Notes: a model not told the origin generated them from the sequence alone. Numbered from the stretch's first letter, positions 9,712 through 57,956 are shown. The stretch: DNA of 64,000 nt from Patescibacteria group bacterium (GCA_038061615.1 JBBTYY010000015.1:1298-65297), one strand, 5' to 3'. Numbers and translations: made by a program.

Positions 9712-9715
9712 CTTA

Positions 9716-25307: not shown

Positions 25308-26128
25308 AGCCCTAACTCGCTTTCAGCAATCTTAATTTCTTTTTCTGTTGGAGTTCTATAATGCCATTCATTTCTATCCTCTAATACCGAAACCCCTTTA
25401 CCTTTAATAGTATGAGCAATAACAATACTTGGCTTACCTTTTTCGAATGGAAGCCTTGAAAAAACTTGCGAAATTTCCTCAAAACTATGACCATCAATTT
25501 CTTTTACAGACCATTTAAATGCTTCCCATTTCTTAACAAAAGGCTCTAAATCCAAAACATCTGCAACCCGACCAAAGCTCTGCCATTTGTTGTAATCGAC
25601 AATAACAACAAGATTATCGAGCTTGTGATGGCCAGCTTGTAAAATTGCTTCCCATGTTGATCCTTCATCACATTCACCATCGCTTGTCATAACAAATACT
25701 CTATATTCTCTTTTTTGCAGTTTTCCAGCCAAAGCCATACCAACTCCAATTGGAAGACCATGTCCCATTGATCCGGTTGTTGCTTCTATACCAGGAGTTC
25801 CATTTCTTGTTGCAATGCCAATCATCTTACTACCATCTTGACAATACGTATCAAGCAGTTTTTTTTCAAAAAACCCTTTTCTTGCTAAGATTGTATATAA
25901 TGTTGATATCCCCCATCCTTTACTCAAAATGAAACGATCGCGATTTGGATCTTGAGGATTTTTTGGATCAATCTTAAGAATCTTCTCATACAAATATACT
26001 ATTAATTCAACAATAGAATATGATGAGGCGATATGAGATGCGTGAGCAGCAACTATTATCGATAATACAGTTTGTCTGATTTCCCTTGCATACTTTTTAA
26101 GCGACTCAAATTCTTTTTTATCAAGCAT
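25304..26128 (-). CDS. Transketolase N-terminal-section subunit (ThDP-binding)
   Basis: 274 aa. GSMGHGLPIGVGMALAGK and VMTSDGECDEGSTWEA are ThDP-binding motifs. 4-nt overlap with the C-terminal subunit gene. Confidence 0.8.
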   Translation of the reverse strand: MLDKKEFESLKKYAREIRQTVLSIIVAAHASHIASSYSIVELIVYLYEKILKIDPKNPQDPNRDRFILSKGWGISTLYTILARKGFFEKKLLDTYCQDGSKMIGIATRNGTPGIEATTGSMGHGLPIGVGMALAGKLQKREYRVFVMTSDGECDEGSTWEAILQAGHHKLDNLVVIVDYNKWQSFGRVADVLDLEPFVKKWEAFKWSVKEIDGHSFEEISQVFSRLPFEKGKPSIVIAHTIKGKGVSVLEDRNEWHYRTPTEKEIKIAESELGL

Positions 26129-41120: not shown

Positions 41121-41158
41121 ACTTCAATAATCAATAAACATACGACAATAAGCAATAA

Positions 41159-41527
41159 TCATTTGCTAAGACGCAGCGTTTTAATCTTGCTCCATAAAAG
41201 ACGACTTATTTCATCTCCCAGATCTAACAGGCTTTCTTTACCTCTTTCTTGAATTAATTCTTGTTCATAAGAAAAGTAAATCAAATATTTTGTTTCTTTT
41301 GTGGAGCCTAATGCAATTTCTAGAAATCTTCTATGGTCTTGCTTGCTTATTCTTGCATAACCTTCTACTAAATTAAGCGGAATAGATAAAGCTGCCCTTC
41401 TTAATTGAGAAGTAATTCTAAATAATTCTTCTTTAGGGAAAGTTTTTGTTATTCTATAAACTTCCTTTGCTAGTTTATCTGCTTTTATTAGTATAATGTC
41501 GTTTTCCGAACCGACTCTTTTGTCCAT
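41159..41527 (-). CDS. Four-helix-bundle protein (TIGR02436 / '23S rRNA intervening-sequence protein' family)
   Basis: 122 aa. YRITKTFPKEELFRITSQLRRAALSIPLNLVEGYAR is the family signature. Flanked on both sides by non-coding spacers containing caataatca direct repeats. Confidence 0.7.
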   Translation of the reverse strand: MDKRVGSENDIILIKADKLAKEVYRITKTFPKEELFRITSQLRRAALSIPLNLVEGYARISKQDHRRFLEIALGSTKETKYLIYFSYEQELIQERGKESLLDLGDEISRLLWSKIKTLRLSK

Positions 41528-41595
41528 ATTTTAATATATGACTATAATCAAAGATCAATAATCATGGGTAGAAAAAATTATTCCTTGTTTTTTGT

Positions 41596-42345
41596 TTATT
41601 GTTTTTTGTCCTTGTCATAGTAATGTAGAATTTTTAACCTATAAAAAACTGCGGCGGTGTCCCACAACATCCAAAAAATAACTCTCCAAAAACTAGTCGA
41701 AGTTATGCTTCCTGATCCTCTAAAATTTAGTTTTATGGGAGCTTCGTAGATTCTTGTATATCCAAGCTTGTACGCTACAGCTAAAGTCTCGACGTCAAAA
41801 GCAAATTGTTTCACTAATAACCTTGGGAATACATCCCTAACTACTCTTTTTTTAAAAAACTTTAGCCCAACCTGTGTATCTCTTACATCGAATCCAAAAA
41901 GCAAATGAGTAAAAGTTCTGTATCCCCATGACAAAATTTTTCTTTGTATTGGATAGCTAACTATGGAATCCGGATGAAGTTTACTTCCTATAATAATATC
42001 TGCGTCATGCAATTTTATAAAATCAAGGAGAATCGAGATAGAAGAACTCTCTATGTCCATTCCGGCATCCATAAATCCAATTACATCTCCCTTTGCTTCT
42101 AGCATTCCCAGCCGCACAGCGTTGCCTTTACCTAGGTTTACTTTATAACCCAAGACCCTTACGTTATTATTTTTTACTTTTTTGGCTTTTTCATAGGTTT
42201 TATCCAAAAAACCGTCAACAACCACGATAATCTCATACTTGCAATCAAGCTTTGAAAGAGTTTCTGCAAGACTTTCAATATTTAAAACAATTGTTTTTTC
42301 TTGTTTATAAGCAGGGACAACTAAAGATAAAGTTTTAATGTTCAT
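41596..42345 (-). CDS. GT2 polyprenyl-phosphate sugar synthase-like (DPM1/GtrB-like catalytic domain, no TM)
   Basis: 249 aa. LSLVVPAYKQEKTI, IIVVVDGFLDKT, GKGNAVRLGM and FMDAGMDI. Confidence 0.7.
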   Translation of the reverse strand: MNIKTLSLVVPAYKQEKTIVLNIESLAETLSKLDCKYEIIVVVDGFLDKTYEKAKKVKNNNVRVLGYKVNLGKGNAVRLGMLEAKGDVIGFMDAGMDIESSSISILLDFIKLHDADIIIGSKLHPDSIVSYPIQRKILSWGYRTFTHLLFGFDVRDTQVGLKFFKKRVVRDVFPRLLVKQFAFDVETLAVAYKLGYTRIYEAPIKLNFRGSGSITSTSFWRVIFWMLWDTAAVFYRLKILHYYDKDKKQ

Positions 42346-43038: not shown

Positions 43039-44351
43039 GATATGAAAGGAATAATGCTTTTTATTTTTTTAAAACTTCCATATTCTTTTATATATAAGAT
43101 AAAGAGAACAATAAGAACAACTAATGATGCCGAAAGAGAAACATTAATTACCTGAAAGAAAGTTTTGTGAAAAAGCGATATTAGAATCATCTGAGCCAAC
43201 GCACCTGCTCCTACTACGAAAGCTATCTTAGTTTTTTTAATTGACAGGAAAAAATTTACAAATACATTTAATATATTAAAAACCATAATAAAAAGTCCGT
43301 ATGTTCCTAAATACGGAGAAACTTTTGCGTATTCTCGTCCCCCTAAGAAAAAATTTATACTAATAAGCGGAAAAACGTAATAGAATGCAACTATAAAAAT
43401 AGAAGGAATAGTTACTAAAAAAAGAGCCAAATAAAAAAGGGAATTAAAATTCTGTCCCGTACTGTGTCTTTTAATAAGAAGGGGGAACATAACAGAAGAA
43501 ATTGGGCCTGTAAAATAAAATATTACCTTACCAACGAGAGAGAGTCCTCCGTACAAACCAGCATCTTGAGCACTAAAGAAATGTTTTACTAGAATAATAT
43601 CTGTTGAAATTAATGAATTTAAAGATAAAATAGCAATTGAGGCAGGCAAGGCATACTTTATCATATCTCTTAGGGGGAAGTCGATATTCCTAGAGCGTTT
43701 TCTCGCAATTAAAAAACGCAAAGGCAGAAAAGATATTAAAAAAGATACTAAGAATGCAAAAAAAACTGCCCATAAGGCACCAAATACCCTAAGCCCCAAT
43801 ATTACCAATGCTATTCCTATTGTGATCCTTAGAATCGATCCTAAAATTGAAGAAAAGGAAATGAATGGAAATTTGAGGAGGCTTTGCAGAAAGGCTGAAT
43901 TTACCACCGATAGATAAGCTAAGCTTACAATAAGACCAACTTGAATAATATACCAAACATTATCAAGATGTAAAAATTCTTTTAGAAAGATTGAGGAAGC
44001 TGTAAATCCAATAAAAATAAGTAGCGAAAAAACAAACATTAATCGCAGCAATTTAGCATATAAGTCTTTTGCTTCATTTAGTTTATTTTTTGCAAAAAAT
44101 TCTGTCGCAAATCTAATTATTATAGTGATAAGTGATTGCGCCGGAATTACAGCAAGAGTAAAAAGCGATAAAAGACTGGCGTATATTCCATAATCGGCAG
44201 CGGTAAAACTTCTTACTAGGAATAAATTTAAAATAAAAGAAAGAAAACTTGAAACTATTACGCCAATAAAAACAAATATGCTTCCGCTAATCAGCTCATG
44301 CTTGATAAGTTTTTTACCTAATCCAAATATTTTTTTATTCATATTATGCAA
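43029..44351 (-). CDS. Wzx-like oligosaccharide flippase (MOP superfamily polysaccharide biosynthesis protein)
   Basis: 440 aa with 12-14 TM helices and the typical length and hydropathy of PST-family flippases. Confidence 0.65.
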   Translation of the reverse strand: MHNMNKKIFGLGKKLIKHELISGSIFVFIGVIVSSFLSFILNLFLVRSFTAADYGIYASLLSLFTLAVIPAQSLITIIIRFATEFFAKNKLNEAKDLYAKLLRLMFVFSLLIFIGFTASSIFLKEFLHLDNVWYIIQVGLIVSLAYLSVVNSAFLQSLLKFPFISFSSILGSILRITIGIALVILGLRVFGALWAVFFAFLVSFLISFLPLRFLIARKRSRNIDFPLRDMIKYALPASIAILSLNSLISTDIILVKHFFSAQDAGLYGGLSLVGKVIFYFTGPISSVMFPLLIKRHSTGQNFNSLFYLALFLVTIPSIFIVAFYYVFPLISINFFLGGREYAKVSPYLGTYGLFIMVFNILNVFVNFFLSIKKTKIAFVVGAGALAQMILISLFHKTFFQVINVSLSASLVVLIVLFILYIKEYGSFKKIKSIIPFISCS

Positions 44352-45468
44352 TAAAATACCCTCTTAGAAAATAAGAAGTCAGAACAGCTAAAAACACCAA
44401 GGATAAAATTAGTAAGGAAACCTTAAGCAAATTGCTTTTTAGGTCACCCAAGATTATAAAAACCGGAAAAATAATCAAAAGATAGCGAGGAATAGAAGCT
44501 AATGTACCGGAAAGACTTGGTATCATAATAGCTAAAATACCAAAAATCAGATAGGATAATCTAATTTTCTTTATATTAAATACTAAAATAAAAAGAAAAA
44601 TAAAAAATAAACCGAACTCAAGTAGAGCAATAAGAGCATTATGAGTAAAAAAAGGAACTGTTGCAAAAATTTTCAGGTATCTGAAAATAACTTGAGGAAG
44701 GAGAATAACTTCTCCCCCTGATCTTCCCACTCCAAAGGCAGACAGGGAATGAATGAAAAGCAGTGGATCCCCAAACATCTTCCAAAGGTAAAATATATAA
44801 AGTAAAAGACCAGATGAAGAAAATATAATTATAGATATAAGAATTGATGCCGGAAAATTATCGCGGTCTAATTTTCTTTTCTTGTATTTCTGGCAGAATT
44901 CAATAATTATTGAGGGGAGTAAAAGAATTCCTACAAATCGTGTTGCCGAAGAAATTCCACCAAGAAAACTTCCAAGTAGAAAATTAGATTTCCTTACAAA
45001 ATAAAAAGAGACCATAATAGACGCTAGTGATAAAGATTCGGTATAAACGGATGCAAAAAAGAAACTGGTCGGAAAAAATATTAAAAATAGAACCGACCAA
45101 TTTGCTGTTTTCTCACTGTAATCTAGTTTTACAAGTTTATAAAAAAAATATAAGGCAATAAAAAAACTTAGATGTGTTATTATAAGTCCTGATATTAAAT
45201 AATTATTAAAAGAAACAAAAGATAAAAATTTAATAATTAATGGGAAAAAAGGGAAAAAAGCCTGTTGATAAATACCATATCCGTTTTCCGCAATACTCAA
45301 ATAATGCACTCCATCAAGATTTGCCCATGGCACTGGGCCAAGATAGCCTCTATTCAATGGTATTATCTTGGATAAAAACTCTATCAAAAAGAGAAATAAT
45401 CTCCAAGCTGTAAATGCTTTAAAAATAAAAAAAATTACATTTTTATCCTTTTTCCAAAACTTTTTCAT
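44344..45468 (-). CDS. Polytopic membrane protein, PIG-V/GT76-like or related GT-C mannosyltransferase-like
   Basis: 374 aa, ~10 TM. WANLDGVHYLSIAENGY...AFFPFFP resembles the PIG-V family W-D-HY-IA-GY / FFP signature. Confidence 0.45.
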   Translation of the reverse strand: MKKFWKKDKNVIFFIFKAFTAWRLFLFLIEFLSKIIPLNRGYLGPVPWANLDGVHYLSIAENGYGIYQQAFFPFFPLIIKFLSFVSFNNYLISGLIITHLSFFIALYFFYKLVKLDYSEKTANWSVLFLIFFPTSFFFASVYTESLSLASIMVSFYFVRKSNFLLGSFLGGISSATRFVGILLLPSIIIEFCQKYKKRKLDRDNFPASILISIIIFSSSGLLLYIFYLWKMFGDPLLFIHSLSAFGVGRSGGEVILLPQVIFRYLKIFATVPFFTHNALIALLEFGLFFIFLFILVFNIKKIRLSYLIFGILAIMIPSLSGTLASIPRYLLIIFPVFIILGDLKSNLLKVSLLILSLVFLAVLTSYFLRGYFIA

Positions 45469-46510
45469 AAGCCCTAACTGTTTGTTCTGCTGTTTTTTTC
45501 CAGGAAAATTTACCCGATTGCTTAAATCCCGCAGCAGAAAATTCTTTTCTTAATTTTTCATCTTCAAAAACTTCTGTTATGTCTTTTGCTATTTTATCTG
45601 AATCATATGCATCTGTATAAAAAGCCGCATCTCCCGCTACTTCAGGGATTGATCCTTCTTTAGTTGTTATAACGGGACAGCCACATGCCATTGCTTCTAA
45701 GATAGGCAGGCCGAATCCCTCATACAAACTTGGCATTATAAACACGGTTGCCAAATTATATAATACTACTAAGTCTTCTGTTTCAACAAAACCGACCCGC
45801 AAAATATTTTTATTCCCTTCAACTAATTTCTGAACTTCCAATAAATCTTGATTCCAAGGGTTGTTTTTATCAAAGTCGGATGAAACTAGAGTTTTTCCCA
45901 CCATAACCAGTGGAATCCTTGATTTTCTTGCAGCTTCCACTAATCTTGGAAGATTCTTGTTCCATGTAACATCCCCTACATACAAAGCAAACTTTTCCGG
46001 CAAATTATACTTCTCTCGAATTTTCTTAAGTCTTAAGTCATCGGTCTTAAATCTTTTAAATTCTTCTCCTGCGGCCAGATAGATAACTTCAATTTTTTTC
46101 TCACTTACGCCCGTAAATTTAATTATGTCTCTTTTTGAAGATAGTGAATCTGCAATTATTAAATTTGCTTTCCTCAGAGAGGCTTTTTGAATAAGCCACT
46201 TAAAGCCCCCCCTTACTCCTTTTGGGAAATATTTAGGAAAAACCAGAGGCGTTAAGTCATGAACAGTAACTATAGTTTTACATCGATTGAATAGCGGTAA
46301 CGTAATAAAAAATGGCTCGAAGTAAGGATAATGGATTAAATCTGTATCTTTGGATAAATTTTCTCCTCGAACAAAAAAAGTATACTTATTTTTGGGAAAA
46401 TACTTAACCAACGATCTTTTCAGATTGTTAATATAAAAACCAACCCCTCTTACTCTATGCTGAATTAAACCTTTTTTCTCGATTGGTGAAACATCAATAG
46501 CTATTTTCAT
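45443..46510 (-). CDS. GT4 (group 1) glycosyltransferase
   Basis: 355 aa. [33 protein letters not shown] (EX7E motif region). Confidence 0.75.
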
Positions 46511-48156
46511 TTTCTCATTATACCAATTATACTTTTTCTTCCAAGAAATGCTAACAGTAATACCGATATAAAAAAATAGGTATAAGAGGCTATTCTAACG
46601 GAAGTGTCGAAAAAAATTAATTCAACTTCATGCATCCCGCTTGGTATTCTAATAAGTATTCTTCCGTTGTAATTATCGACTTCCTTCTTTTTACCATCAA
46701 TAAAAGATATCCAACCCGGGAAATATGCAGTGTTAATAATAATCTGACTATTTTCTTTCGCATTGATCATTAATTTATAAGACTGAGGCTTAATATTACC
46801 TATTTTAATAGAGCCCGATCCTCTAAGAAATTCAAATTTATCTTTTCTTTTTTGAGGAATTGCAACCAACCATTTTGTATTAAAAGAATTTCCGGGGCTG
46901 TTGGTTCCATCGATAAAATTTGATCTCGTTAAGTAATAAGTATCTACTCTTTTGTGGTAAAAAGGAGCCTTTGCATATCCTAAACCTAATAATATTGGAG
47001 ATAGTATGAAAATAAAAGCAAAAAGATTTTTCATCCATCCTTTTGAGACAGCATTAACGATACTTCCTCCCAAAAATGAGATAATTAAAATTGTAAGACT
47101 TAAAAATCTCCATGGAAATTGGAAATAATTAAAAAAGGGAATATTATCCCAAAACCAAGATGAATAAGGAGTCATTAAGAAGATAGCTGCAAGAAACCAA
47201 ACAAGAAAAAAAGTTAATAAAATACGATTTTTTTTATATCTAATAAGTACTAGAAATGACAGTAAAACAACTAAAATATTCACCACTCCAATTTGAAATG
47301 ACATTTGGTTTTGAATTTCCTTACCCGAAAATCCATATCCCCAGGACGGAATTACAAGCTGATAAATTTCAGGAAAGTGTTGTTTTAGATCAAATATCTG
47401 AAGGCCTGTTGCATATTTACTTTCGAAAAGTGCAGGTAACCAAAATGGAGAAGATAATCCTAAGCCAATAAACAATATTAAAATTAAATTTTTAAAATAT
47501 TCTATTTTATTTTTTTGACGGATTGATAAGAAAAGACAGTACGAAATAAAAAAAATAAAAAATAATAGAGCTAAAATATTATGAGAGAGAACAAGAAGAG
47601 AGAGAATAACCGATGAAACCACAAAAAAAATCCGGCTCTGTCTATTTGAAAACTCTGTAAAGCTCCATAAAAGTCCCGGAAATAATGCAAGACTCCATAC
47701 CTCTCCTACAGATCCTCTTACATAGATATCTACGAAATGATAAGGAGAAAAAGTATATAGAATGGAGGATATAATCGCTCCAAGATCCTTCCAAAATAAT
47801 CTTGCCCATAGATAGAAAAAAATTGCACCCACAAAACTTGCAAAAATCATGTTTAGTTTAAAAGAGTCGATAAAACTAAAGCCCAGGAAATGAAAAAATG
47901 AAGCAATATAGTTTGGGAGAGGATAAACGTAATTGAAAAGTGGTATGCCAAAACCATTATTAAAATCGGGCGCCCAGCGGGGATACAGAATTCCGCTTTC
48001 TAAAACTTTATAGAATTGTTGGAATCTTACTGTGTGATATTCTCCATCATGCGTTGGAGGAAGACCCGAGGAAAAAAGCGAAATGGAGGCAATCAATGCT
48101 CCTGCGATCACGACAAGTAGGGAAAAGTTCTTTTTTAATAAATCTATATTTTTCAT
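46507..48156 (-). CDS. PTPS-related (PF10131-like) polytopic membrane protein, putative GT-C-like glycosyltransferase
   Basis: 549 aa. N-terminal SGLPPTHDGEYHTVRFQQF...YPRWAPDFNNGFGIPLFNYVYPLP, then ~10 TM helices and a C-terminal periplasmic beta-rich domain. Paralogue of 52027..53679. Confidence 0.65.
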   Translation of the reverse strand: MKNIDLLKKNFSLLVVIAGALIASISLFSSGLPPTHDGEYHTVRFQQFYKVLESGILYPRWAPDFNNGFGIPLFNYVYPLPNYIASFFHFLGFSFIDSFKLNMIFASFVGAIFFYLWARLFWKDLGAIISSILYTFSPYHFVDIYVRGSVGEVWSLALFPGLLWSFTEFSNRQSRIFFVVSSVILSLLVLSHNILALLFFIFFISYCLFLSIRQKNKIEYFKNLILILFIGLGLSSPFWLPALFESKYATGLQIFDLKQHFPEIYQLVIPSWGYGFSGKEIQNQMSFQIGVVNILVVLLSFLVLIRYKKNRILLTFFLVWFLAAIFLMTPYSSWFWDNIPFFNYFQFPWRFLSLTILIISFLGGSIVNAVSKGWMKNLFAFIFILSPILLGLGYAKAPFYHKRVDTYYLTRSNFIDGTNSPGNSFNTKWLVAIPQKRKDKFEFLRGSGSIKIGNIKPQSYKLMINAKENSQIIINTAYFPGWISFIDGKKKEVDNYNGRILIRIPSGMHEVELIFFDTSVRIASYTYFFISVLLLAFLGRKSIIGIMRK

Positions 48157-49289
48157 GAAATCTTGATTGTTCCAAGCTTTTTGCTAAATTTAAATTTCCT
48201 ATCAACCGCTAGGTACAAATACAAACAAAGAACTGGAAGGAAGATTAATATAATTTTTAATAATGGAGTTGATCCAGAATATGTTCCGGAAAACATAAAG
48301 GGAGCATAGCTTAAGAGTAAACCAAACGAAATTGCATTTGAGAGATACAGGAGATTCCTTCTTTGAGGTATTAGATATGAAAATACCAAAAACCAAATTG
48401 CATACCATGGATATATCTCTTCTCTAAGGAATGACAAGAAAAAGATCAGCATCATAGATAAGGCGGAAATAAAAAAAACTCTCTCCCAATTTATACTTTC
48501 TTTTCTAATTGTTTTTAGAATTATATAAATAAAAACAGGGAAAAGAAAAATCGTAGAATATTTTATTAATATAGAGGCTATGATAAAAATTAAACTCAAG
48601 AAAATTCTTTTTTTAATTAGAAAATAGAAGGATAAAAGTGCGAAAAACATCATAACGATATCATTATGGGAACTTACTAATGTTTCCATAATAATTAATG
48701 GGCTTAATGCAAATAAGAAAACAGATTTCATATTTTTTGAAATCTTCGAAACTAAAAAGATAGTACCTAGGTAGAATAAAATGACTAGCAGTTTAAAATT
48801 AAATAGAGTAAGAACATAATTATCAAATCCCAATATAAAACTGATACCAGTGATTTTTATCCAAACGGGACCATACAATGCAACTTTATTCACCGCCCTC
48901 GTAAAAATCAAAAGAGGATCGCCTACGAACTCGATGGGCATAAGTATGTATGGATTTTCTCTATAAAAGAACAAAACTTTTGAGGTTGCGATGTAATTAA
49001 ATATATCATAGGAGAGTATTGCAGGGTACGCTAGAAATAAGATACCGGAAGTTACTAGTATTATTTTTTTAATGTTTATACTTTTTTGATATTTTAGAAT
49101 GAGATAATAAAAAACAAAAAATAATAAAACAAAAATAACATACGTCATCGTTGCAATTGTTCTGCTATTTGCTGCAAGCCCGGTGTAAATGTTATGGAGA
49201 TACGATAAGTTTTGATCGGTAAATAGGTAAGAAAAGATTACAAATAAGAAAAGGGTAAAAAAATATACTGGGAGAAATAGCTTCTTCAT
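48153..49289 (-). CDS. DUF2029/GT87-like polytopic membrane glycosyltransferase
   Basis: 378 aa, ~10 TM. SYDIFNYIATSKVLFFYRENPY resembles the GT87 SDDVYRY-WDG...NPY signature loop. Confidence 0.5.
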   Translation of the reverse strand: MKKLFLPVYFFTLFLFVIFSYLFTDQNLSYLHNIYTGLAANSRTIATMTYVIFVLLFFVFYYLILKYQKSINIKKIILVTSGILFLAYPAILSYDIFNYIATSKVLFFYRENPYILMPIEFVGDPLLIFTRAVNKVALYGPVWIKITGISFILGFDNYVLTLFNFKLLVILFYLGTIFLVSKISKNMKSVFLFALSPLIIMETLVSSHNDIVMMFFALLSFYFLIKKRIFLSLIFIIASILIKYSTIFLFPVFIYIILKTIRKESINWERVFFISALSMMLIFFLSFLREEIYPWYAIWFLVFSYLIPQRRNLLYLSNAISFGLLLSYAPFMFSGTYSGSTPLLKIILIFLPVLCLYLYLAVDRKFKFSKKLGTIKIS

Positions 49290-49813
49290 AACGTTTTACT
49301 TCTTATAGCTATAGACGTATCGATAGTTGTCCAAAGATTTAGATTGGTTGGGGTATCTTTCTCCGGCGTCCATTTAAATTTATCAGGAACATTATTTTTT
49401 AATTTTTCAAACTCTTCAATGTGTTTCCTTGAAGCTTCTTTTAAAATTTTCTGTTTTTCGGATGTATTTTTTCCTTCTTTTTTTGCGGAAAGCAAATAAG
49501 GATAAATTTTCTCAAAGTATTGATTGGACTTAAGAAGAGATTTATATGCGAGGAGATATTGTTTATATTCAAATAGGGTTTTTGCTTGCACTAAATATTT
49601 ATCCGAAAGTCTTTGATAATAGTATGACTTACCGAAATTCCCAAAATACCAAAAGTAAGATACTTTTTCTATAACTTGATTAATTGTGTAAAACTTATTT
49701 CCGGGCATTTGTGAAGGATACGGAAGAACATAAGTTGACCCTGCATAAGCAGAAGTCGATAAGTACAAGAAAAAAACGAGGAGAAGTAATGTTTTCCATA
49801 GGCAACTTCTCAT
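49286..49813 (-). CDS. Secreted hypothetical protein (signal peptide)
   Basis: 175 aa. N-terminal MRSCLWKTLLLLVFFLYLSTSAYA signal peptide, Tyr/Lys-rich mature part, no recognisable domain. Confidence 0.45.
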   Translation of the reverse strand: MRSCLWKTLLLLVFFLYLSTSAYAGSTYVLPYPSQMPGNKFYTINQVIEKVSYFWYFGNFGKSYYYQRLSDKYLVQAKTLFEYKQYLLAYKSLLKSNQYFEKIYPYLLSAKKEGKNTSEKQKILKEASRKHIEEFEKLKNNVPDKFKWTPEKDTPTNLNLWTTIDTSIAIRSKTL

Positions 49814-50805
49814 TTTGAATTTTGAATTTTGAATTTTGAATTATTGTTATGCCACTCCCAAGCGGTTTTAACTATTGTCTCTAAGCTTGAATATTTTGGC
49901 TCAAAATTAAGTTCTCGTTTAATTTTTGCAGGATCTGCTATTAAAACTTCTGCGTCCCCTGGTCTTTTATCGGCAATTTTTACTTTAAAATCTATTTCTG
50001 ATACTTTTTTTACCATCTCTAAAACCTCTTTATTAGAATATCCCTTACCGGTTCCGACATTATAGAAAAATCCTCCGTTATCTCTCCCAAGCTTATCCAA
50101 AACAAGAAGGTGAGACTCAACTAAATCTATCACATGAATATAATCGCGAATGCATGTTCCATCCTTCGTATTATAATCATTGCCGTAGAGACTAAGCTCT
50201 GAACCTTCTAAAGCTGCCTTAACAGCAAGAGGAATTATGTGTGTTTCGGGATTATGCTTTTCGCCAAGTCGCGCGTCCAAAGATGCGCCTGCCGCATTAA
50301 AATATCTAAGACTTGCAAAATTTAATCCATAGATCCTGTTATACCATGATAAAATTTTCTCAACCATCAGCTTGCTTTCTCCGTATGGATTTGTGGGATT
50401 TGTCACATGATCCTCGGGAATTGGAATTTTCATTGGATTTCCATAAACACCTGCGGTTGAAGAAAATATAAAAGATCCAACTTTATTTTTTACTGCATTC
50501 TCAATCAGCCTCAATGCCCCAAAAACATTATTCTTAAAGTATATGCTTGGGTTTTCCATTGATTCTGCCATAGAGATGCAACCTGCAAAATGTAGAATTG
50601 AATCAAATTTGTTTTCTTTAAATAAGCTATCGATAAAACTTTCATCTGAAACATCTCCTTCTACTAATCTTGCTCTCGAATCAACAGCTTCTTTGTGTCC
50701 TCGGGACAAGTTATCTAAAACAGTTACCTCATCTCCTCTCTCAAGGAATCTTCTAACCATAAAGCTTCCAATATATCCGGCACCGCCAGTAACAAGTATT
50801 TTCAT
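49810..50805 (-). CDS. galE: UDP-glucose 4-epimerase (GalE-like)
   Basis: 331 aa. MKILVTGGAGYIGS, HFAG, SSTAGVYG, YGESKL and the overall GalE pattern. Confidence 0.8.
   Translation of the reverse strand: MKILVTGGAGYIGSFMVRRFLERGDEVTVLDNLSRGHKEAVDSRARLVEGDVSDESFIDSLFKENKFDSILHFAGCISMAESMENPSIYFKNNVFGALRLIENAVKNKVGSFIFSSTAGVYGNPMKIPIPEDHVTNPTNPYGESKLMVEKILSWYNRIYGLNFASLRYFNAAGASLDARLGEKHNPETHIIPLAVKAALEGSELSLYGNDYNTKDGTCIRDYIHVIDLVESHLLVLDKLGRDNGGFFYNVGTGKGYSNKEVLEMVKKVSEIDFKVKIADKRPGDAEVLIADPAKIKRELNFEPKYSSLETIVKTAWEWHNNNSKFKIQNSK
49812..49839. repeat. (ATTTTGA)x4 tandem heptamer at a gene junction
   Basis: Directly visible. Encodes the C-terminal NSKFKIQNSK of the GalE-like gene and overlaps the start of the downstream gene. 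Confidence 0.9.
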
Positions 50806-50813
50806 AGTTTGTA

Positions 50814-50841
50814 AGCCTTAAAGACTTAAGACTTAAGACTT
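50814..50841. repeat. (AGACTTA)x3 + AGACCTA tandem heptamer filling the intergenic spacer
   Basis: Directly visible between the galE start codon and the stop of the four-helix-bundle gene. The same TAAGACN/AAGTCTT heptad family recurs at 42363-42397, 51208-51235, 51682-51716, 59957-60023 and 61662-61749. Confidence 0.9.
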
Positions 50842-51202
50842 AAGACCTAAGTTTCCAATATTTTATCAAGGAATTTACCATTTTGCTAATTTCTTCTGCA
50901 TCCATCTGTAAATTATCGTAGGTAGATTTCGAAATATAGCCTAAATCCATGGAAAGGATAAGATAGTATTTAACCTCTTCTAGAGATCCGTTTGAAATAT
51001 ACAAAAACTGAATAAATTCTTTCTTATGGTTTCTAGCATTTCCTTCTATAATATTTGCAACAATCGAAACACTAGCTCTTCTGATTTGACTTATTAATCC
51101 AAATGTCTCGTGTTGAGGAAACGTTTTAGTGATTTTATAAATTTTAATTACGAATTGATGAGCTTTTTTATAAACTTTTAAACTTTCGAATTTGTTTGCC
51201 AT
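50840..51202 (-). CDS. Four-helix-bundle protein (TIGR02436 / '23S rRNA IVS protein' family), second copy
   Basis: 120 aa. YKITKTFPQHETFGLISQIRRASVSIVANIIEGNAR. Bracketed on both sides by TAAGACN-type heptamer tracts. Confidence 0.7.
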   Translation of the reverse strand: MANKFESLKVYKKAHQFVIKIYKITKTFPQHETFGLISQIRRASVSIVANIIEGNARNHKKEFIQFLYISNGSLEEVKYYLILSMDLGYISKSTYDNLQMDAEEISKMVNSLIKYWKLRS

Positions 51203-51216
51203 AATGCTCTTACTTC

Positions 51217-52014
51217 TTAAGTCTTACGTCTTAAATACTTTACATACGCTACGGGAAATCGAAGGGAAGAAAAAAGAGAAAACACAAATCCCGGCCAGAG
51301 ATCCATAAAACCTTTATGTCTGAAATAAGTAATCAAAAACCAATGCGGAGGTTTTAAGAACACAAGTCCCAACCCATACAAAATTTTTTGAAATCTGTTC
51401 TTATTTTTAAGTTTATCTTTGGTTTGGCTTGAGATAAGACCTGTATATCTGCTCCATTTCAATATATATTCAGAAAAATCTTTGTAAGGATAATGCAATA
51501 ACGCTTCATCTAAATATCCCACTTCGCCATCTACCTCCGCCTGCTCATGAACATCTTTTTGCGGAAGTCTTCCTCTGCCTCTTTTATAGAGTCTTAAGGT
51601 GTAATCCGGATATTGCCCTCCTTTTAATAAAAACCGTCCCAAAAACCAATTTTTTCTGGGAATCCAATAACCGTTGATATCAGACTTAGGACTTAAGACA
51701 TAAGACTTATGAGATAAAATTTCTTTAATTTCATTTGCAAGTTCAGGTGTAACTCTTTCGTCTGCATCAAGCTGAAGTATCCAATCACAAGTTGCCATAT
51801 CAATTGCCATCTGTTTATTAATATGAAAAACGGGTTTGTTTGTTGTTATTTTTATCCTTGCCCCAAATTTTTTGGCAATTTCAACAGTTTTGTCTTTTGA
51901 TGAACCATCTACCACAACTATCTCATCGGCAATATCTTTTATACTGTTAAGACATGCGGAAAGATTATTTTCTTCATTATATGTTGCCAAAACCACGGAA
52001 AGAGTTTTTCCCAT
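51217..52014 (-). CDS. GT2 glycosyltransferase
   Basis: 265 aa. LSVVLATYNEENNL, IVVVDGSSKDKT and QLDADE (DxD). Confidence 0.75.
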   Translation of the reverse strand: MGKTLSVVLATYNEENNLSACLNSIKDIADEIVVVDGSSKDKTVEIAKKFGARIKITTNKPVFHINKQMAIDMATCDWILQLDADERVTPELANEIKEILSHKSYVLSPKSDINGYWIPRKNWFLGRFLLKGGQYPDYTLRLYKRGRGRLPQKDVHEQAEVDGEVGYLDEALLHYPYKDFSEYILKWSRYTGLISSQTKDKLKNKNRFQKILYGLGLVFLKPPHWFLITYFRHKGFMDLWPGFVFSLFSSLRFPVAYVKYLRRKT

Positions 52015-52026: not shown

Positions 52027-53679
52027 CTAAGAAAGCCTCATTTTTACAAACTTAAACAATAAGAAACCTATTATATTGAGGCTAACTACTATAGATATGG
52101 CATCGGATAGCGCTCTGATCTTTGTTTCTTTATAGTATACCTCCACAAGGTAGCTACCCTTGTCTAATCTAAATGTCATGATTCCACGATAATGAGGATC
52201 TTGAAATTCCATATCCACAGATTTTTTGTTTGCAAAAATATTCCAGCCGGGAAAATATAAAGTATTTTCCGCAAATAATGTCTTTCCTAAAACATCAACG
52301 TTATATAAATGATATGTTGAAATTCTTTTTAATTCTTTTACAGTCGCTTTACCGTCTAAAACTTCCAGATGAGTCTTCGGTCTTTTTTCCATAAACCGTA
52401 CAGACCAAATTGGTGCGCTTTCTCCTGTATCTGTAGTACTGTTGTAAATACCCGTAAAAAATTCATCTGGATTTTGCAGATATCCGTTTGCCCTTACATA
52501 GTCTTTACTTTGAAACAAAATAATTAGAAGAAGCAAAACAAAAATTATTTTTTTAAATTTACTTGGAACCGCAGAAATAAAATATGCTCCCAAAACTGAA
52601 GTCGTAAAAACTATTACTGCTAAAAAACGCCAGGGAAATTGGAAGTTTTGAAGAAGAATAAATTTTGACCAAATAAAATTAGATTCCTTAAACATTAAAA
52701 ACAAAGCAAAAAAGGAGATTATAATTAATACTGAAATCAGAGTGTAATTTTTATTTTTCTTTCGATAATAATGAAATAATGCAAAAGGTGAGAAGAGCAA
52801 ACTCAACCATGAACCTATACCAAACTGAACGGTAAATTGCCCCGAGCCTCCATAGCTCCAAGAACTGTAAAGCAGATCTTTTAAATTAACAAACCGGGTT
52901 ATGTAACTACCTTTAGTAACAATATTTCTTAAAGTATATTTCCCTTCCATAAGACCAGGAATCCAAAAAAACGCAGAAAGCGAAAAACCGATCAGTATTA
53001 AGAATAAGGTATTAAGTATTAAGTATTTATTAAATTTCGATAACCAAATAAGATAGAAACAATAAGCGAGAATAAATGGTACTAACATTAAGCTTATTGC
53101 GTTGTGGGATAAAATTAGAAGAGCCAAGGATATAGCTCCAAAGATAGAATATTTATATTTTTGATCCTTATATAACTTATATAAAAAGTAGAGAGTGAGC
53201 GGGATAAATGCAAAAGCTAAATTCTCTCCAATATCTCCTCTGACGTACAAGTCAACAAATCTATAGGGAGCATAAGTGTATAAAATAGCGCCTAAAACCG
53301 CAGGAATTTCTCCCAAAAAAGAAGAAAGCCATAAATACATAAAAGCCAAAGACAAAATCATCCCTAAGCCAAAAACAATTTTTACAGAATCAACCAAGGA
53401 AAAACCTACAAAGTGAAAAAATGAAGCGATGTAAGACGGCAGGGGGTACAAAAACTCCAAGATCGGATGCCCGTAGCCCCAATTTAAATTCCCTGCCCAT
53501 CTTGGAATAATGTTTCCTTCCGAAAGATTTTGATAAAAATTGGCAATTCTTGCAACATGATCCTGCCCATCATGCGTAATCGGAAGACCGGCAGAGAGCA
53601 ATGATACTACAGGCAGGATAGCAAGAACAATGAGAGCTATAAAGATTGCTTTATTTTTTATTAGTTCCATAAACTTCAA
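52027..53679 (-). CDS. PTPS-related (PF10131-like) polytopic membrane protein, paralogue of 46507..48156
   Basis: 550 aa. AGLPITHDGQDHVARIANF...IPRWAGNLNWGYGHPILEFLYPLP, ~10 TM, and a C-terminal periplasmic domain. Includes a heptad tract at 52994-53028. Confidence 0.65.
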   Translation of the reverse strand: MKFMELIKNKAIFIALIVLAILPVVSLLSAGLPITHDGQDHVARIANFYQNLSEGNIIPRWAGNLNWGYGHPILEFLYPLPSYIASFFHFVGFSLVDSVKIVFGLGMILSLAFMYLWLSSFLGEIPAVLGAILYTYAPYRFVDLYVRGDIGENLAFAFIPLTLYFLYKLYKDQKYKYSIFGAISLALLILSHNAISLMLVPFILAYCFYLIWLSKFNKYLILNTLFLILIGFSLSAFFWIPGLMEGKYTLRNIVTKGSYITRFVNLKDLLYSSWSYGGSGQFTVQFGIGSWLSLLFSPFALFHYYRKKNKNYTLISVLIIISFFALFLMFKESNFIWSKFILLQNFQFPWRFLAVIVFTTSVLGAYFISAVPSKFKKIIFVLLLLIILFQSKDYVRANGYLQNPDEFFTGIYNSTTDTGESAPIWSVRFMEKRPKTHLEVLDGKATVKELKRISTYHLYNVDVLGKTLFAENTLYFPGWNIFANKKSVDMEFQDPHYRGIMTFRLDKGSYLVEVYYKETKIRALSDAISIVVSLNIIGFLLFKFVKMRLS

Positions 53680-54946
53680 TCCCTTTTTTTCTCATTAAAT
53701 AATAATATACATAAGATTCAGGTACTCCGGCCTGGAATCCTATTTCTCTTCCTTCACGAATTGCTTTTTTTACTGTTTTTTCTCTATCATATAAACCAAC
53801 GTCCTTATAGGAAATAATAGTATTTAATCCGTTTATGGAATAACCTAGAATAAAAATTATAATAACTATTTTACCTAGCAAAAACTTTGTAGTAAAGACA
53901 AGATTTATAAAGTAAACAATAATAAGTAGCGCAATAAATCTATTTACTGCAAAGTAGTAATCACTTATCTCCCCACTATACAATGAAAAAATTACCCATG
54001 GTACTAAAAACCACAGAGCGATAAGGTAACAGATTTTTTTTGCTTCTAAGCTTGTATTCTTCTTAAGATATATCAGAAAAAAAAGAGGAACTAATATAAT
54101 TTTTAAAGGCTTGAGCCTCTCAAGTAAAATATAGGGATCAAATTGTATTAGAGCATCTCCAATCAATTGGGACATTCTTCTTAAATGAAATCCATGATAA
54201 GCATCAGAGAAATAAGCTGTGTTGGAAATATAGTTCTTGCTAGCAATTAAATAAATTATATTTGGTGTAATACTTGCTATCAAAATTGAAATTGCAATAA
54301 ATCCGTATTTTAATGTCTCCCTGGTCCTTGGAAACAAGGGTAATGAAAATAAAATTATCAGAGAAAAGAATATTGAAGTGAAATGGAGACTAAAAGAGAA
54401 ACCTACTGCAATAGATAATGGAATTATTTTTTTTACATCCCCCAAGGTTATCTTATAAAGAAGGTGGAAGATTAATAACGATACCGTTGGTAAAAGCTGC
54501 ACTGGCCATTGAACCCTATCAAACATAATCGCATTAAAACTAAAAGAATTTAACAACAGTGCGATAATTGCTGCCTCAAGGGACAAAAGTTTTTTAAAGA
54601 TAATAAATATCATCCAAAATGTAAAAATACCAGAAAATACTGCAATTGCCTGAGATGCAATAGGGTTTAAATTAAAAATGAAGTAAAAAAAAGACACAAT
54701 GTAATAGTATAGAGGTCCTACATATACTCCGCTATTTGCCTTTGCAACCATACCAACCAATGGAAATTTATGATTGACAATTATATTCATAGCTGCCCAA
54801 GCATTATCCACCTGATCATATCCGAAAGGATTTTTTATATCGAGCTGATATGTTCTTGTAAAAAGATTAAGCAGAAATATAGCAGAAATTACTAAAATAA
54901 TTTTATTATTTTTCAATAACTTCAAGTATTTTTTAATTTTTTTCAT
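53651..54946 (-). CDS. ArnT/GT83-like GT-C membrane glycosyltransferase (tandem paralogue 1, shortest)
   Basis: 431 aa. FGYDQVDNAWAAMNIIVNHKFPLVG...GPLYYYI at the N-terminus parallels the FGFDQGRDY...HKLTLIG...GPFYYY of its neighbours. ~11 TM. Lacks most of the C-terminal soluble domain. Confidence 0.55.
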   Translation of the reverse strand: MKKIKKYLKLLKNNKIILVISAIFLLNLFTRTYQLDIKNPFGYDQVDNAWAAMNIIVNHKFPLVGMVAKANSGVYVGPLYYYIVSFFYFIFNLNPIASQAIAVFSGIFTFWMIFIIFKKLLSLEAAIIALLLNSFSFNAIMFDRVQWPVQLLPTVSLLIFHLLYKITLGDVKKIIPLSIAVGFSFSLHFTSIFFSLIILFSLPLFPRTRETLKYGFIAISILIASITPNIIYLIASKNYISNTAYFSDAYHGFHLRRMSQLIGDALIQFDPYILLERLKPLKIILVPLFFLIYLKKNTSLEAKKICYLIALWFLVPWVIFSLYSGEISDYYFAVNRFIALLIIVYFINLVFTTKFLLGKIVIIIFILGYSINGLNTIISYKDVGLYDREKTVKKAIREGREIGFQAGVPESYVYYYLMRKKGIEVYGTNKK

Positions 54947-56456
54947 CTTCTTCTATCCGCTTTTGAATTATAAATCCGCTCGGTAAAGTTTTTGTATAAA
55001 CAACATCACCGGTTTTGATAACAGTCTCGAGCCAGCCTTCATAAGTCCATGGCTTATGAGGATCGGGCTCGATCAAAAGATAAAATACTCCTTTTTTTTC
55101 ATTATGAGGAATATAACCATATTTTTTTTGCCCATGCCACCAAAGTAAATAATCATAAGGATAAGTATATATTGGAGGAGTAAAAATTAGAAGTTCAAAC
55201 TTTTCTCCCTTGGCATCTTTATAAATGTAATCTATTGCATCAATTTTTCCTTTTACTTTCGCAGTGCCTCCATAATCAAAATAGTCTCTTGTATAGACAT
55301 TTACTGTATAAGAAAAATATACTGCAAAAAAATAAAAAATTATTACAAAAAAGGTTATCTTACCCAGAAGATGTTTTCTAAAAAAATAGATAAGAATAAT
55401 TCCTATAAGAAAACAATAAAATATGTATAACTGTAAAGCCCACCATGTCCACATGTGATCTTTATAAATCATGAAAATAGCAAAAAGTAAAAATGGATTT
55501 GAAACAAGGTAAAAAACAAAAGCTTTTTTTTCAAATACTTGATTTTTGTCTTTTATAAATAAGATGCTACCCAGCACCAAAATTAAAGCAATAATTTGCC
55601 AAAACTCACCAATAAAGGGAAACATTGATGAAAAGCTTGATGAGAAAATTGCGAAATGATTCATGAAGATACTCTCCGCAAGCTTGTTTGCTGTCGGGGA
55701 ATTAAGTGAAGGGAATAATAAATTCATTATTCCTTTTGTATTTAGAAATTCATGTCTCAAGTCAAAAATTATAAGCGGCAGGAGGGGTAAGAGAAAGCCA
55801 ATGATAAATCTGAGTAAAGACCTTCCTGTTATAATTTTTTTCCAAATTAGAAAAGGCACAAATAAAATTGATTGAAAAAGAAGACTTCCGCTAGTTGCGA
55901 TTTCAAAATGAGATATAAGACCAATGGTAAGACCTAAGAATCCCAAGTATTCTTTTTTACCCTGCAGTATTTTATAAATGAAATACAGAAAGAATACTGA
56001 TAAAAGAGATATAGGAAATGGAGGCCATATAAACCTAGACTGAGCAATTATATTTGGAGAAACCGCAATTAAAAATCCTATTATAACTCCTTCCTGCCAG
56101 CTAAATATTTTCTTAGTGAGGAGTATTGCGGAAACAACCGTAGCAATACCAATAATTAACATCAAAACCATCCCCCCATACGGATCTCCCCCAAAAATAA
56201 TAAAGGGAATTGCAAGTAGGTAATACCAACCCGCTCCTTGAAAAAATCCTCCGATCCCGCCCACTTGAGTTCCAATTAAAGTTAATTTATGATCAACAAC
56301 AATTTTTTTGACATCATTGTAGAATTGTCCTTGATCAAATCCAAATAAATAATTCCCGCTTAAAACTTCAACGGATCTTGGAATTAAGGCAAGTACTAGA
56401 ATAAAAATGCTAATTAATAAAAATTTTCTTTTAATTATTTTTTTAATTATTTTCAT
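54933..56456 (-). CDS. ArnT/GT83-like GT-C membrane glycosyltransferase (tandem paralogue 2)
   Basis: 507 aa. FGFDQGQFYNDVKKIVVDHKLTLIG, GDPYGGMVLM, ~11 TM. C-terminal periplasmic domain DAIDYIYKDAKGEKFELLIFTPPIYTYPYDYLLWWHG is shared with paralogues 3 and 4. Confidence 0.7.
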   Translation of the reverse strand: MKIIKKIIKRKFLLISIFILVLALIPRSVEVLSGNYLFGFDQGQFYNDVKKIVVDHKLTLIGTQVGGIGGFFQGAGWYYLLAIPFIIFGGDPYGGMVLMLIIGIATVVSAILLTKKIFSWQEGVIIGFLIAVSPNIIAQSRFIWPPFPISLLSVFFLYFIYKILQGKKEYLGFLGLTIGLISHFEIATSGSLLFQSILFVPFLIWKKIITGRSLLRFIIGFLLPLLPLIIFDLRHEFLNTKGIMNLLFPSLNSPTANKLAESIFMNHFAIFSSSFSSMFPFIGEFWQIIALILVLGSILFIKDKNQVFEKKAFVFYLVSNPFLLFAIFMIYKDHMWTWWALQLYIFYCFLIGIILIYFFRKHLLGKITFFVIIFYFFAVYFSYTVNVYTRDYFDYGGTAKVKGKIDAIDYIYKDAKGEKFELLIFTPPIYTYPYDYLLWWHGQKKYGYIPHNEKKGVFYLLIEPDPHKPWTYEGWLETVIKTGDVVYTKTLPSGFIIQKRIEEDEKN

Positions 56457-56459: not shown

Positions 56460-57956
56460 TTAGTGCGTTCTCGTTTGAACTACAATTCCCCCTTTTACTG
56501 TTTTTTCTTTTTGTATTATTCCATCGTCTTCTCTATCTCTTAACCAATCTTTTAATCTAAATGGCAGATCGTAGTCGGGCTCCAGTATTACATAGAGTAA
56601 TCCAGTGTTTTTTTGGGAAGAGATATAGCTATATTTCTTTTTTCCATACCATGAAAACAAGTATCTATAAGGATAATCGTGTACGGCTGGTGTATAAACA
56701 ATATATTTAAAATCTCTTCCCTTTGCATCATTGTAAACGTAATCAATAACAGCAACTTGATTACGATATACTGCGGCATTTCCCTCCCATAAAGGATCTA
56801 TAATATTGTCTAAAACCCGCATGGGATTTAGATTAATCCAAAATAAAACAAACAACATAAGGAAAATAACCCAAGATTTTCTTAAGACAATCCTTGTTGT
56901 ATTAATAGCTATGCTTACAAGAAGGATATAGAAAACCGGAACACCAACAAGATAATGGGGCCAAATAGCTTGATTAAAGAAAATAAAGCTTATCAAAAAA
57001 ATTATAACTATGATAGCTATAGTTTGTATGAATTGTTTCTGCGTATTTTCCATCTTTTTATAAAAAAACAACAAGCTTAAGAAAACGAATGTTATCAAAA
57101 TAAAACCAACCATACTACTTTGTCCTGCTAATGTAGCACTCCATGTGTTAAATAAAGGACTTAGCCTGCTAAAGAGTTCATCAAAAATAGAAAAATGCTT
57201 AGGTAGCATGAATCCGTTGCTAAAAGCGCTAATAAATGTCTTTGTCATCAAAAAATCATGCCGAACCTCAAAAATAATCCGCGGAGAAAAAATAAATAAT
57301 AATCCTAAGACAAAAAAAGGTATTTCTTTTATTCTCAATCTTTTTCTAAAAACAAGAATTAAAGACATGCAGGTACCCAAAAAAAATAGGATTCCAAATA
57401 CTATTTCCAGATCTATGATAATCCCTAAGAACAAACCAAGTAGTAAAAAATATTTTGCTTTAGAAGTTTTAGGTTTACTATCAAAAGAGAACGCATAAAG
57501 CATCAGGAAGACAAGCAAAACAAAAAAAGGTATTAGATTTGGATTCCATATTTGCGAAGAAGACAGAACCATTATGGAAGAAATACTAATAAAAGCAGAA
57601 AAAATTATTCCTAAAAAAACTCCGCCTATCTTTTTTCCAACAATATAACTTAGTAGAATAGTGATAATTCCCATAAACCCCATGAAAAATGCAATTCCCT
57701 GTGGATTACCGGAAAAGATAAAAAATGGAATACTTAATATATAGTACCACCAAGGCCCATAGAAAATACCTTCTATCCCTGTTGTTTGTCCAATAAGGGG
57801 AATTCTATGATTTACTACTATATTTTCAACAGCAATCATGTCTCGTCCGACATCGTAAGTAAATGCAAAAGAATTATCTATAATTCCGCTTAATCTAAGC
57901 CAAGATCCAATTATTAATATAATCAGGAGCCCTAAAACAACAAACGTTTTTTTCAT
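56460..57956 (-). CDS. ArnT/GT83-like GT-C membrane glycosyltransferase (tandem paralogue 3)
   Basis: 498 aa. FAFTYDVGRDMIAVENIVVNHRIPLIG and a C-terminal VIDYVYNDAKGRDFKYIVYTPAVHDYPYRYLFSWYG domain. Confidence 0.7.
   Translation of the reverse strand: MKKTFVVLGLLIILIIGSWLRLSGIIDNSFAFTYDVGRDMIAVENIVVNHRIPLIGQTTGIEGIFYGPWWYYILSIPFFIFSGNPQGIAFFMGFMGIITILLSYIVGKKIGGVFLGIIFSAFISISSIMVLSSSQIWNPNLIPFFVLLVFLMLYAFSFDSKPKTSKAKYFLLLGLFLGIIIDLEIVFGILFFLGTCMSLILVFRKRLRIKEIPFFVLGLLFIFSPRIIFEVRHDFLMTKTFISAFSNGFMLPKHFSIFDELFSRLSPLFNTWSATLAGQSSMVGFILITFVFLSLLFFYKKMENTQKQFIQTIAIIVIIFLISFIFFNQAIWPHYLVGVPVFYILLVSIAINTTRIVLRKSWVIFLMLFVLFWINLNPMRVLDNIIDPLWEGNAAVYRNQVAVIDYVYNDAKGRDFKYIVYTPAVHDYPYRYLFSWYGKKKYSYISSQKNTGLLYVILEPDYDLPFRLKDWLRDREDDGIIQKEKTVKGGIVVQTRTH

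Follow-up and report, generated by a model that had tools for sequence, protein, structure and literature searches.

A conserved Patescibacteria gene cassette encoding two PTPS-related (PF10131) membrane proteins with a predicted GT-C glycosyltransferase fold

Gene organization of the locus

The DNA examined was a 64,000-nucleotide stretch from a Patescibacteria group bacterium (GCA_038061615.1, JBBTYY010000015.1:1298-65297), referred to throughout as the window, and the analysis centred on two paralogous membrane proteins encoded in it, A1 and A2, together with two further polytopic proteins, B and C (Table 1). An initial annotation of the window had described A1 and A2 as members of the 6-pyruvoyl-tetrahydropterin synthase (PTPS)-related membrane family, B as GT87-like and C as PIG-V-like, and had counted all four among its candidates for the glycosyltransferase C (GT-C) fold; the open reading frames (ORFs) that it had called for the four proteins are present, all on the minus strand. 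Nearly the whole window is a single co-directional minus-strand run of sugar-metabolism genes, and its GC content is low (0.30-0.36). From GalE through DUF5667, B, A1, the glycosyltransferase family 4 (GT4) gene and C to Wzx, start and stop codons overlap as judged from the coordinates, the B stop codon with the A1 start codon included, which indicates that this part of the run is a tightly packed operon. Consensus scans of the window for promoters and terminators returned counts at the level of shuffled sequence (70 versus 68.5 and 11 versus 9.7, respectively) and were therefore uninformative on transcription units, and scans with Rfam and for tRNAs found none. B is 100% identical to a protein deposited from a metagenome-assembled genome (MAG) named "Patescibacteria group bacterium" (P0121); groundwater metagenomes from Hainich yielded the same contig, and the nearest named relatives of the window proteins are from Levybacteria and Roizmanbacteria.

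Table 1. Principal features of the window (aa, amino acids; TM, transmembrane helix; GT2, glycosyltransferase family 2)
Feature	Coordinates	Strand	Evidence
A1, PTPS_related (PF10131) GT-C-fold membrane protein, 549 aa	46507..48156	-	Pfam, AlphaFold (AF2) model, Foldseek, motif, topology
A2, paralogue of A1 with the same motifs and architecture, 550 aa	52027..53679	-	BLASTP, Pfam, synteny
B, MptA/MptB-family (PF26314) polytopic membrane protein, 378 aa	48153..49289	-	PF26314 on identical protein, TIGR03459
C, PIG-V/Gpi18-like polytopic membrane protein, 374 aa, optional in the cassette	44344..45468	-	PF04188, sub-threshold
DUF5667 protein with N-terminal signal or anchor, 175 aa	49286..49813	-	PF18915, 33.6 bits
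GalE, UDP-glucose 4-epimerase	49810..50805	-	NCBIfam TIGR01179 equivalog, 412.6 bits (cutoff 262.3)
GT4 (GT-B fold) cytoplasmic glycosyltransferase just downstream of A1, 355 aa	45443..46510	-	PF00534, 117 bits
Wzx-type polysaccharide flippase, about 11 TM, 440 aa	43029..44351	-	PF13440 and PF01943, above cutoff
GT2 (GT-A fold), constant downstream partner of A2, 265 aa	51217..52014	-	PF00535
GT2 without TM helix, candidate DPMS/PpgS-like polyprenyl-phosphate sugar synthase, 249 aa	41596..42345	-	Profile and PDB matches, synteny
ArnC/GtrB-type membrane GT2 with two C-terminal TM, putative polyprenyl-phosphate sugar synthase, 308 aa	2985..3911	-	PDB and NCBIfam matches
Six PMT_2/ArnT-like polytopic proteins, 431, 507, 498, 511, 574 and 575 aa	53651..62979	-	Pfam
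Distant A1-family relative: TM bundle, extracellular domain, C-terminal TM, 728 aa	13607..15793	-	hhalign; no Pfam match

Family assignment of A1 and A2

A1 and A2 are new members of PF10131, a catalogued family of the GT-C superfamily. A Pfam scan gave scores of 63.7 and 41.5 bits, respectively, both above the gathering cutoff of 26.4 bits, with A2 also exceeding the PMT_2 cutoff (31.5 bits). The two proteins are 34% identical over 540 amino acids (BLASTP, E = 7e-85), which bears out the paralogy proposed for them. Every one of 22 aligned relatives of A1 matched PF10131, 6 of the 22 also matching YfhO (best E = 2e-14) and 5 matching PMT_2. The family is a large one, the A1 profile matching 18,859 clusters at the 50% identity level with E ≤ 1e-3 and 5,710 with E ≤ 1e-30. 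Neither A1 nor A2 had a match to the YfhO model (PF09586) at E ≤ 0.01, and by sequence both resemble YfhO without being members of PF09586; no match to PF02516 was found for either. Searches of the PDB with the single A1 sequence and with its family profile returned no sequence match. In the literature searched, the only paper naming PF10131 lists it as a member of the Pfam clan GT-C (CL0111) of unknown function, in agreement with the status of suspected, not proven, glycosyltransferases that had been assigned to the PTPS-related family.

Some cluster representatives of the A1 family (P0361, P0363, P0364, P0365 and P0371) are 1093-3329 amino acids long, with profile matches in up to five separate stretches, and represent either PTPS-related modules fused in tandem or genes merged in calling.

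Conserved residues, fold and topology of A1

The N-terminal motif predicted for both paralogues was found in A1 (SSGLPPTHDGEYHTVRF...YPRWAPDFNNGFGIPLFNYVYPLPNY) and in A2 (SAGLPITHDGQDHVARI...IPRWAGNLNWGYGHPILEFLYPLPSY), and alignment across homologues showed the THDGxxHxxR, PRW and YPLP residues to be conserved beyond chance. Twelve positions showed no variation among 22 sequences: T35, H36, D37, H41, R44, P59, R60, W61, Y78, P79, L80 and P81. The comparison was widened to 134 full-length cluster representatives, 26-52% identical to A1 (median 31%). Residues conserved in at least 90% of these include P138, Y139, P241, W272, W336, P348 and W349, as well as P480, G481 and W482 of the C-terminal domain; G70, P72 and P79, like D37 and R60, each reach at least 92%, and D37 (93%), R60, R147, E152, H192, E245 and R350 each reach at least 93%. 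The match of A1 to PF10131 starts only at residue 74, and the motif that is most diagnostic therefore lies outside the curated Pfam model.

The AF2 model of A1, a confident one (predicted local distance difference test score, pLDDT, 84.7; predicted TM-score, pTM, 0.88), comprises a helical membrane bundle, a beta-sandwich (residues 441-515) and a last helix (residues 519-536). When the model was compared with the PDB by Foldseek, ranks 1-26 were occupied exclusively by GT-C enzymes (STT3, PglB, AglB, AftD, AftA, ArnT, ALG12, Pmt4 and ALG3), with probabilities of 0.96-1.00, TMq values of 0.34-0.47 and a best E value of 3.9e-4, so that A1 has a GT-C fold as well as a family match, and the refuting outcome named in the annotation, neither an HMM match nor such a fold, did not occur. 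The beta-sandwich gave partial Foldseek matches to GH30-type side domains of glycoside hydrolases (probability 0.99), a likeness that fits a glycan-binding role.

In the model, the first TM helix (TM1) spans residues 11-28 and the next helix residues 36-53, with D37 at its start. The PimE paper places the catalytic Asp residues of PimE, ALG6, ArnT and PglB after TM1, at the tip of JM1, the first juxtamembrane helix; by its position in the chain, D37 would be the counterpart of this residue and is a candidate catalytic residue of A1. The model helices give A1 a topology of 12 TM helices, in which Lys and Arg are denser in the inner loops (0.33) than in the short outer ones (0.05), and none of the residues conserved at 90% or more falls in an inner loop. 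Because the inner loops are rich in Lys and Arg and devoid of highly conserved residues, the active site is predicted to lie on the outer face of the membrane. The polytopic nature of the proteins is thus as had been annotated, but with about 12 TM helices in place of about 10, and with the extracellular beta-sandwich inserted before the final C-terminal TM helix.

GT-C-like folds are also found in proteins that are not glycosyltransferases, such as PIG-U, a structural relative according to the PimE paper, and a review has speculated that, in some small GT-C systems, acceptor binding requires a protein of its own. A1 and A2 might on these grounds have the fold without being transferases, serving as a non-catalytic scaffold, an acceptor-binding partner (compare PIG-U in the glycosylphosphatidylinositol (GPI) transamidase) or a transporter of lipid-linked glycans. 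This is improbable, since a near-invariant Asp at the canonical catalytic position, together with an invariant set of Arg, His and Glu positions that face outwards in the predicted topology and are kept down to 26% identity, is the pattern of an enzyme and not of a scaffold. A relation of A1 and A2 to PTPS itself, and so to pterin or queuosine metabolism, is suggested solely by the historical Pfam/NCBI name "6-pyruvoyl-tetrahydropterin synthase-related protein"; no match to the PTPS catalytic domain was found, the proteins are 12-TM membrane proteins with a GT-C fold, and all neighbouring genes are sugar-related. With no PTPS domain present, this reading of the family name is effectively refuted.

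Proteins B and C

B, which contains LSYDIFNYIATSKVLFFYRENPY, has the invariant stretch S93-Y-D95-I-F-N-Y99 and an invariant E111-N-P-Y loop. The GT87/DUF2029-like label given to it was close but not exact: a local Pfam scan returned no match for B, with none to PF09594 (GT87; gathering cutoff 25 bits) even at E ≤ 10, although two of its homologues, P0123 and P0154, lie just over that cutoff (25.3 and 27.0 bits) and 6 of 120 homologues are labelled GT87. The family label is instead PF26314 (MptA_B_family), carried by P0121 and by all 120 listed homologues; this is a precomputed database label (E ≤ 1e-5), the model not having been returned by the local Pfam scan. The NCBI MptA model TIGR03459 matched B weakly (E = 6.3e-8, 31.9 bits against an equivalog cutoff of 439), from which it follows that B is not an MptA orthologue. 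B is therefore assigned, by sequence similarity, as a distant MptA/MptB-family protein. PDB sequence searches with the single B sequence and with a profile returned nothing. The model of B is of good overall quality (pLDDT 80.8), but its best-conserved loop (residues 95-124) is poorly modelled, and the Asp loop comes after the third helix, so that B appears to carry two extra N-terminal TM helices ahead of it.

The PIG-V-like character of C is borderline, the protein having scored 21.5 bits against PF04188 (E = 1.8e-4), narrowly under the cutoff of 22.4. Among 120 C homologues, PF04188 is present in about half, and the name "Gpi18-like mannosyltransferase" has been given to several. Comparison of the B profile with C by hhalign gave only a weak match (probability 10%).

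A conserved gene cassette

Synteny was examined in the best 77 distinct loci of 571 confirmed relatives, taking one genome per species and orienting each locus on the match, and gene order was read by tblastn with the window's neighbouring proteins. One fixed order was seen in the related loci: (PMT_2-like)-A2-GT2(265)-GalE-DUF5667-B-A1-GT4-(C)-Wzx-GT2(249). The cluster is shared by a group of very small bacteria from groundwater. An A1-type gene was present in 71 of the 77 loci, with B directly upstream of it in 62, the order DUF5667-B-A1 in 61 and A1 followed by GT4 in 53. The DUF5667 gene directly precedes B in 64 of the 66 loci with a B-type gene, and an A2-type gene was detected in 33 loci, in 31 of which the 265-amino acid GT2 comes directly after it. 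A1 and A2 occur together in 27 of 77 loci, and C was detected in 13. As each has its own constant partners, A1 and A2 are taken to be old paralogues. The downstream end of the cassette is usually formed by the 249-amino acid GT2, after Wzx, and the GT-A domain of the 265-amino acid GT2 resembles GmaR and SunS. No paper in the literature searched mentions the DUF5667 domain; the protein might serve the GT-C enzymes as partner or acceptor.

Many of the MAG records that bear the cassette (L009, L013, L015 and L017 among them) are titled "uncultured Gammaproteobacteria bacterium", and one "Woesearchaeota archaeon". These titles look like placeholders or errors because the gene order is identical and the proteins are 45-57% identical to those of Levybacteria. 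In one distant relative, L005, two extra proteins of 514 and 609 amino acids were considered as members of the A family and rejected. The operon also contains two small genes for "23S rRNA intervening-sequence proteins" (PF05635, weakly bAvd-like; 50840-51202 and 41159-41527) whose products are 40% identical to each other. Both are bracketed by inverted repeats (50813-51240 and 41125-41608), one pair with 33-nucleotide arms that are 82% complementary and contain TAAGAC/GTCTTA units, and the other with 24-nucleotide arms (79%). The two genes look like inserted, stem-enclosed ORFs, as the gene is missing from the calls at this position in the distant relatives L005 and L007.

Genes for donor supply

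Several genes of the window have the features expected of enzymes that make lipid-linked sugar donors. On the basis of its sequence, GalE would supply a precursor of the UDP-galactose or UDP-N-acetylgalactosamine (GalNAc) type. The 249-amino acid GT2 matched the catalytic domain of dolichyl-phosphate mannose synthase (DPMS; 5mlz, E = 3.1e-13) and positions 4-196 of the 226 in the PpgS model (E = 4.2e-10). The 308-amino acid GT2 aligned over its full length with ArnC (9hwj_A, E = 1.1e-39) and also matched GtrB (5ekp, E = 4.5e-27) and NF007986 (E = 3.1e-43); it adjoins an EamA transporter gene (1884-2759) and genes for a dehydratase, a C-methyltransferase, a cupin, a formyltransferase and an aminotransferase.

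The wider set at 1884-10693 comprises the EamA gene, the ArnC-like GT2, an NDP-sugar dehydratase/epimerase, the C-methyltransferase, the cupin, the formyltransferase, a DegT aminotransferase and two more GT2s with two C-terminal TM helices each. It has the appearance of a compact gene set for a lipid-linked, N-formylated, C-methylated amino-deoxy sugar, and may plausibly be the donor pathway for the ArnT/PMT_2-like array at the opposite end of the window. A split transketolase-like pair (24384-26128), a thiamine pyrophosphate-binding N-terminal part followed by the pyrimidine-binding and C-terminal domains, lies among NDP-sugar modifying genes, which suggests chemistry on a two-carbon branch or side chain of a sugar and not central metabolism.

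Other GT-C candidates in the window

The density of GT-C candidates in the window is high; the annotated figure of about 14 is only partly upheld. Six pass curated thresholds, namely A1, A2, B (PF26314) and the three array members at 57973-59508, 59531-61255 and 61252-62979, which exceed PMT_2 or PMT cutoffs. Five more are sub-threshold or profile-level: C, the remaining array members at 53651-54946, 54933-56456 and 56460-57956 (24.0, 21.2 and 17.5 bits; cutoff 26.1) and the 728-amino acid protein. The last three, two giants of 1228 and 850 amino acids and a 332-amino acid ORF at the window edge, were without support. Comparison of the A1 profile with one PMT-type protein of the array by hhalign showed no relation.

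Of the three giants that had been called YfhO-like, only the 728-amino acid protein was related to A1 in profile comparisons (hhalign probability 94.9%, E = 4.5e-8, 476 aligned columns over the full length). The label was rejected as unsupported for the other two, whose hhalign matches to the A1 profile are weak (14% and 8% for the 1228- and 850-amino acid proteins, respectively) and for which no Pfam, NCBIfam or PDB sequence match was found. These two (15790-19476 and 20673-23225) are paralogues of each other, with 47% identity over 599 amino acids; in both, about 11-13 N-terminal TM helices are followed by a large extracellular portion and a TM helix at the C-terminus, and they share a conserved FFWLKPGEMDLGGDxSRLYFYDP motif after TM1.

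Proposed mechanism

Taken together, these findings indicate that A1 and A2 are probably integral membrane glycosyltransferases of the GT-C fold and family PF10131, with a YfhO-like architecture, which would use a lipid-linked donor at the outer face of the membrane with Asp37 as the base. Systems that combine a GT-A enzyme, a flippase and a GT-C enzyme are established in Gram-positive bacteria, as covered in a review, and in mycobacteria, and the donor-supply genes of the window match this scheme, with ArnC/GtrB-like and DPMS/PpgS-like GT2s and flippase candidates among them. A cytoplasmic or membrane-anchored GT-A enzyme would place a sugar from a nucleotide sugar on polyprenyl (undecaprenyl) phosphate, the candidates being the 249-amino acid, 265-amino acid and ArnC-like GT2s, and the lipid-linked sugar would then be flipped across the membrane, possibly by Wzx or EamA. 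At the outer face, conserved Arg and His residues of A1 or A2 may bind the lipid phosphate, Asp37 at the start of the first juxtamembrane helix would activate the acceptor hydroxyl, and the C-terminal beta-sandwich may hold the glycan acceptor. B and C would perform like chemistry on other linkages, and together with GT4, the GT2s and GalE these proteins would build a lineage-specific envelope glycan.

The very best Foldseek matches of A1 are STT3, PglB and AglB, GT4 and the Wzx flippase almost always come after A1, and the window showed no gene of the Wzy, WaaL or PglL type that could complete a Wzx pathway. These observations would suit A1, A2 or both as an oligosaccharyltransferase, ligase or polymerase, by which an undecaprenyl-diphosphate oligosaccharide made by GT4 and the GT2s and flipped by Wzx would be moved en bloc to protein, a cell-wall polymer or a growing chain. 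Such a role is considered unlikely, given that the STT3 hallmark WWDYG is absent (A1 has W-F-W-D at 334-337, of which only W336 is conserved, and A2 lacks it), that AftD and ArnT score equal to STT3 (TMq up to 0.47), and that the sequence affinity of the family is to YfhO and PMT_2, which use monophosphate donors.

A number of points weigh against A1 and A2 acting as monosaccharide transferases with lipid-linked donors. The window yielded no priming phosphoglycosyl transferase, Wzy or WaaL, which leaves the pathway logic incomplete and keeps en-bloc transfer or polymerization by A1 a live rival. The TM-scores of the A1 model are modest (0.40-0.47), with Foldseek E values of about 1e-3, and the equivalence of D37 to the catalytic Asp is one of chain position and not of structural alignment. 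The match to PF10131 covers only the N-terminal half of the model (profile positions 1-316 of 621), and no functional study or assayed member was found in the literature searched for PF10131, IPR018776 or the COG numbers. A Foldseek search of the PDB with the B model, in which the conserved loop is poor, gave nothing significant, GT-C entries appearing only at E > 2. Finally, the cassette GT2s (249 and 265 amino acids), whose specificity for a lipid phosphate is putative, are without TM helices.

The conserved operon, with at least four GT-C families, suggests that much of the surface glycan of Patescibacteria is assembled outside the membrane. More tentatively, the cassette may be a lineage-defining, mycobacteria-like extracytoplasmic assembly line, in which PF10131, MptA/B-like, PIG-V-like and PMT_2-like enzymes build a major envelope lipoglycan or wall polymer of the Levybacteria/Microgenomates, with the DUF5667 protein as a dedicated partner or acceptor. 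If this is true, PF10131 and DUF5667 would for the first time be placed in a functional context, one that points to a surface structure central to the episymbiotic lifestyle; very little is known of the Patescibacteria cell surface. The assignment of A1 and A2 to GT-C is already implied by the Pfam clan and would on its own be no surprise to a specialist. What is new is the GT-C model of A1, a candidate catalytic residue set and a conserved cassette for a huge family, and as PF10131 is uncharacterized, the biochemistry of A1 and A2 would be informative.

Comparison with known systems

In Bacillus, Staphylococcus and Listeria, the GT-C enzyme YfhO (PF09586) works with CsbB (GT-A) and GtcA (flippase) to glycosylate lipoteichoic or wall teichoic acid. 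Like YfhO, A1 and A2 combine a polytopic GT-C module at the N-terminus with an extracytoplasmic domain, 6 of 22 A1-family members match the YfhO model, and the genomic logic of GT-A, flippase and GT-C is the same. They differ from YfhO in being much shorter, at about 550 amino acids, and in having no PF09586 match; the Bacillus subtilis protein is about 860 amino acids long. No small flippase of the GtrA type was seen here, and the host is a Patescibacterium without known teichoic acids.

In the PpgS/Rv3632/Rv3779 system of Mycobacterium tuberculosis, a short GT2 makes polyprenyl-phosphate-GalNAc and a GT-C enzyme transfers galactosamine to arabinogalactan. Although the likeness of the 249-amino acid GT2 to PpgS is weak (4e-10, far below the equivalog cutoff) and no small membrane partner like Rv3632 was identified, this GT2 aligns full length with the PpgS model, GalE is part of the cassette and GT-C genes adjoin. 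No paper in the literature searched links Rv3779 to PF10131.

MptA/MptB and PimE are mycobacterial GT-C mannosyltransferases that depend on polyprenyl-phosphomannose and act in the synthesis of lipomannan and phosphatidylinositol mannosides. B differs from MptA and PimE in apparently having two extra N-terminal TM helices and in the lack of a significant fold match, but it carries PF26314 and matches TIGR03459 (6.3e-8), and its D95-x-x-x-Y99 spacing equals that of the essential D58 and Y62 of PimE, a correspondence that is suggestive only.

With the solved enzymes of the GT-C(A) class, A1 has only 10-16% identity and no sequence-level PDB match; WWDYG is missing from A1 and A2, and the THDGxxHxxR...PRW...YPLP set is specific to the A1 family. 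In fold class, however, A1 agrees with STT3/PglB/AglB, ArnT, AftD, AftA and Pmt (Foldseek probability 1.00, TMq 0.40-0.47), and in A1 an acidic residue follows TM1 directly, where the first juxtamembrane helix begins, which is the placement described for PglB, ArnT, ALG6 and PimE.

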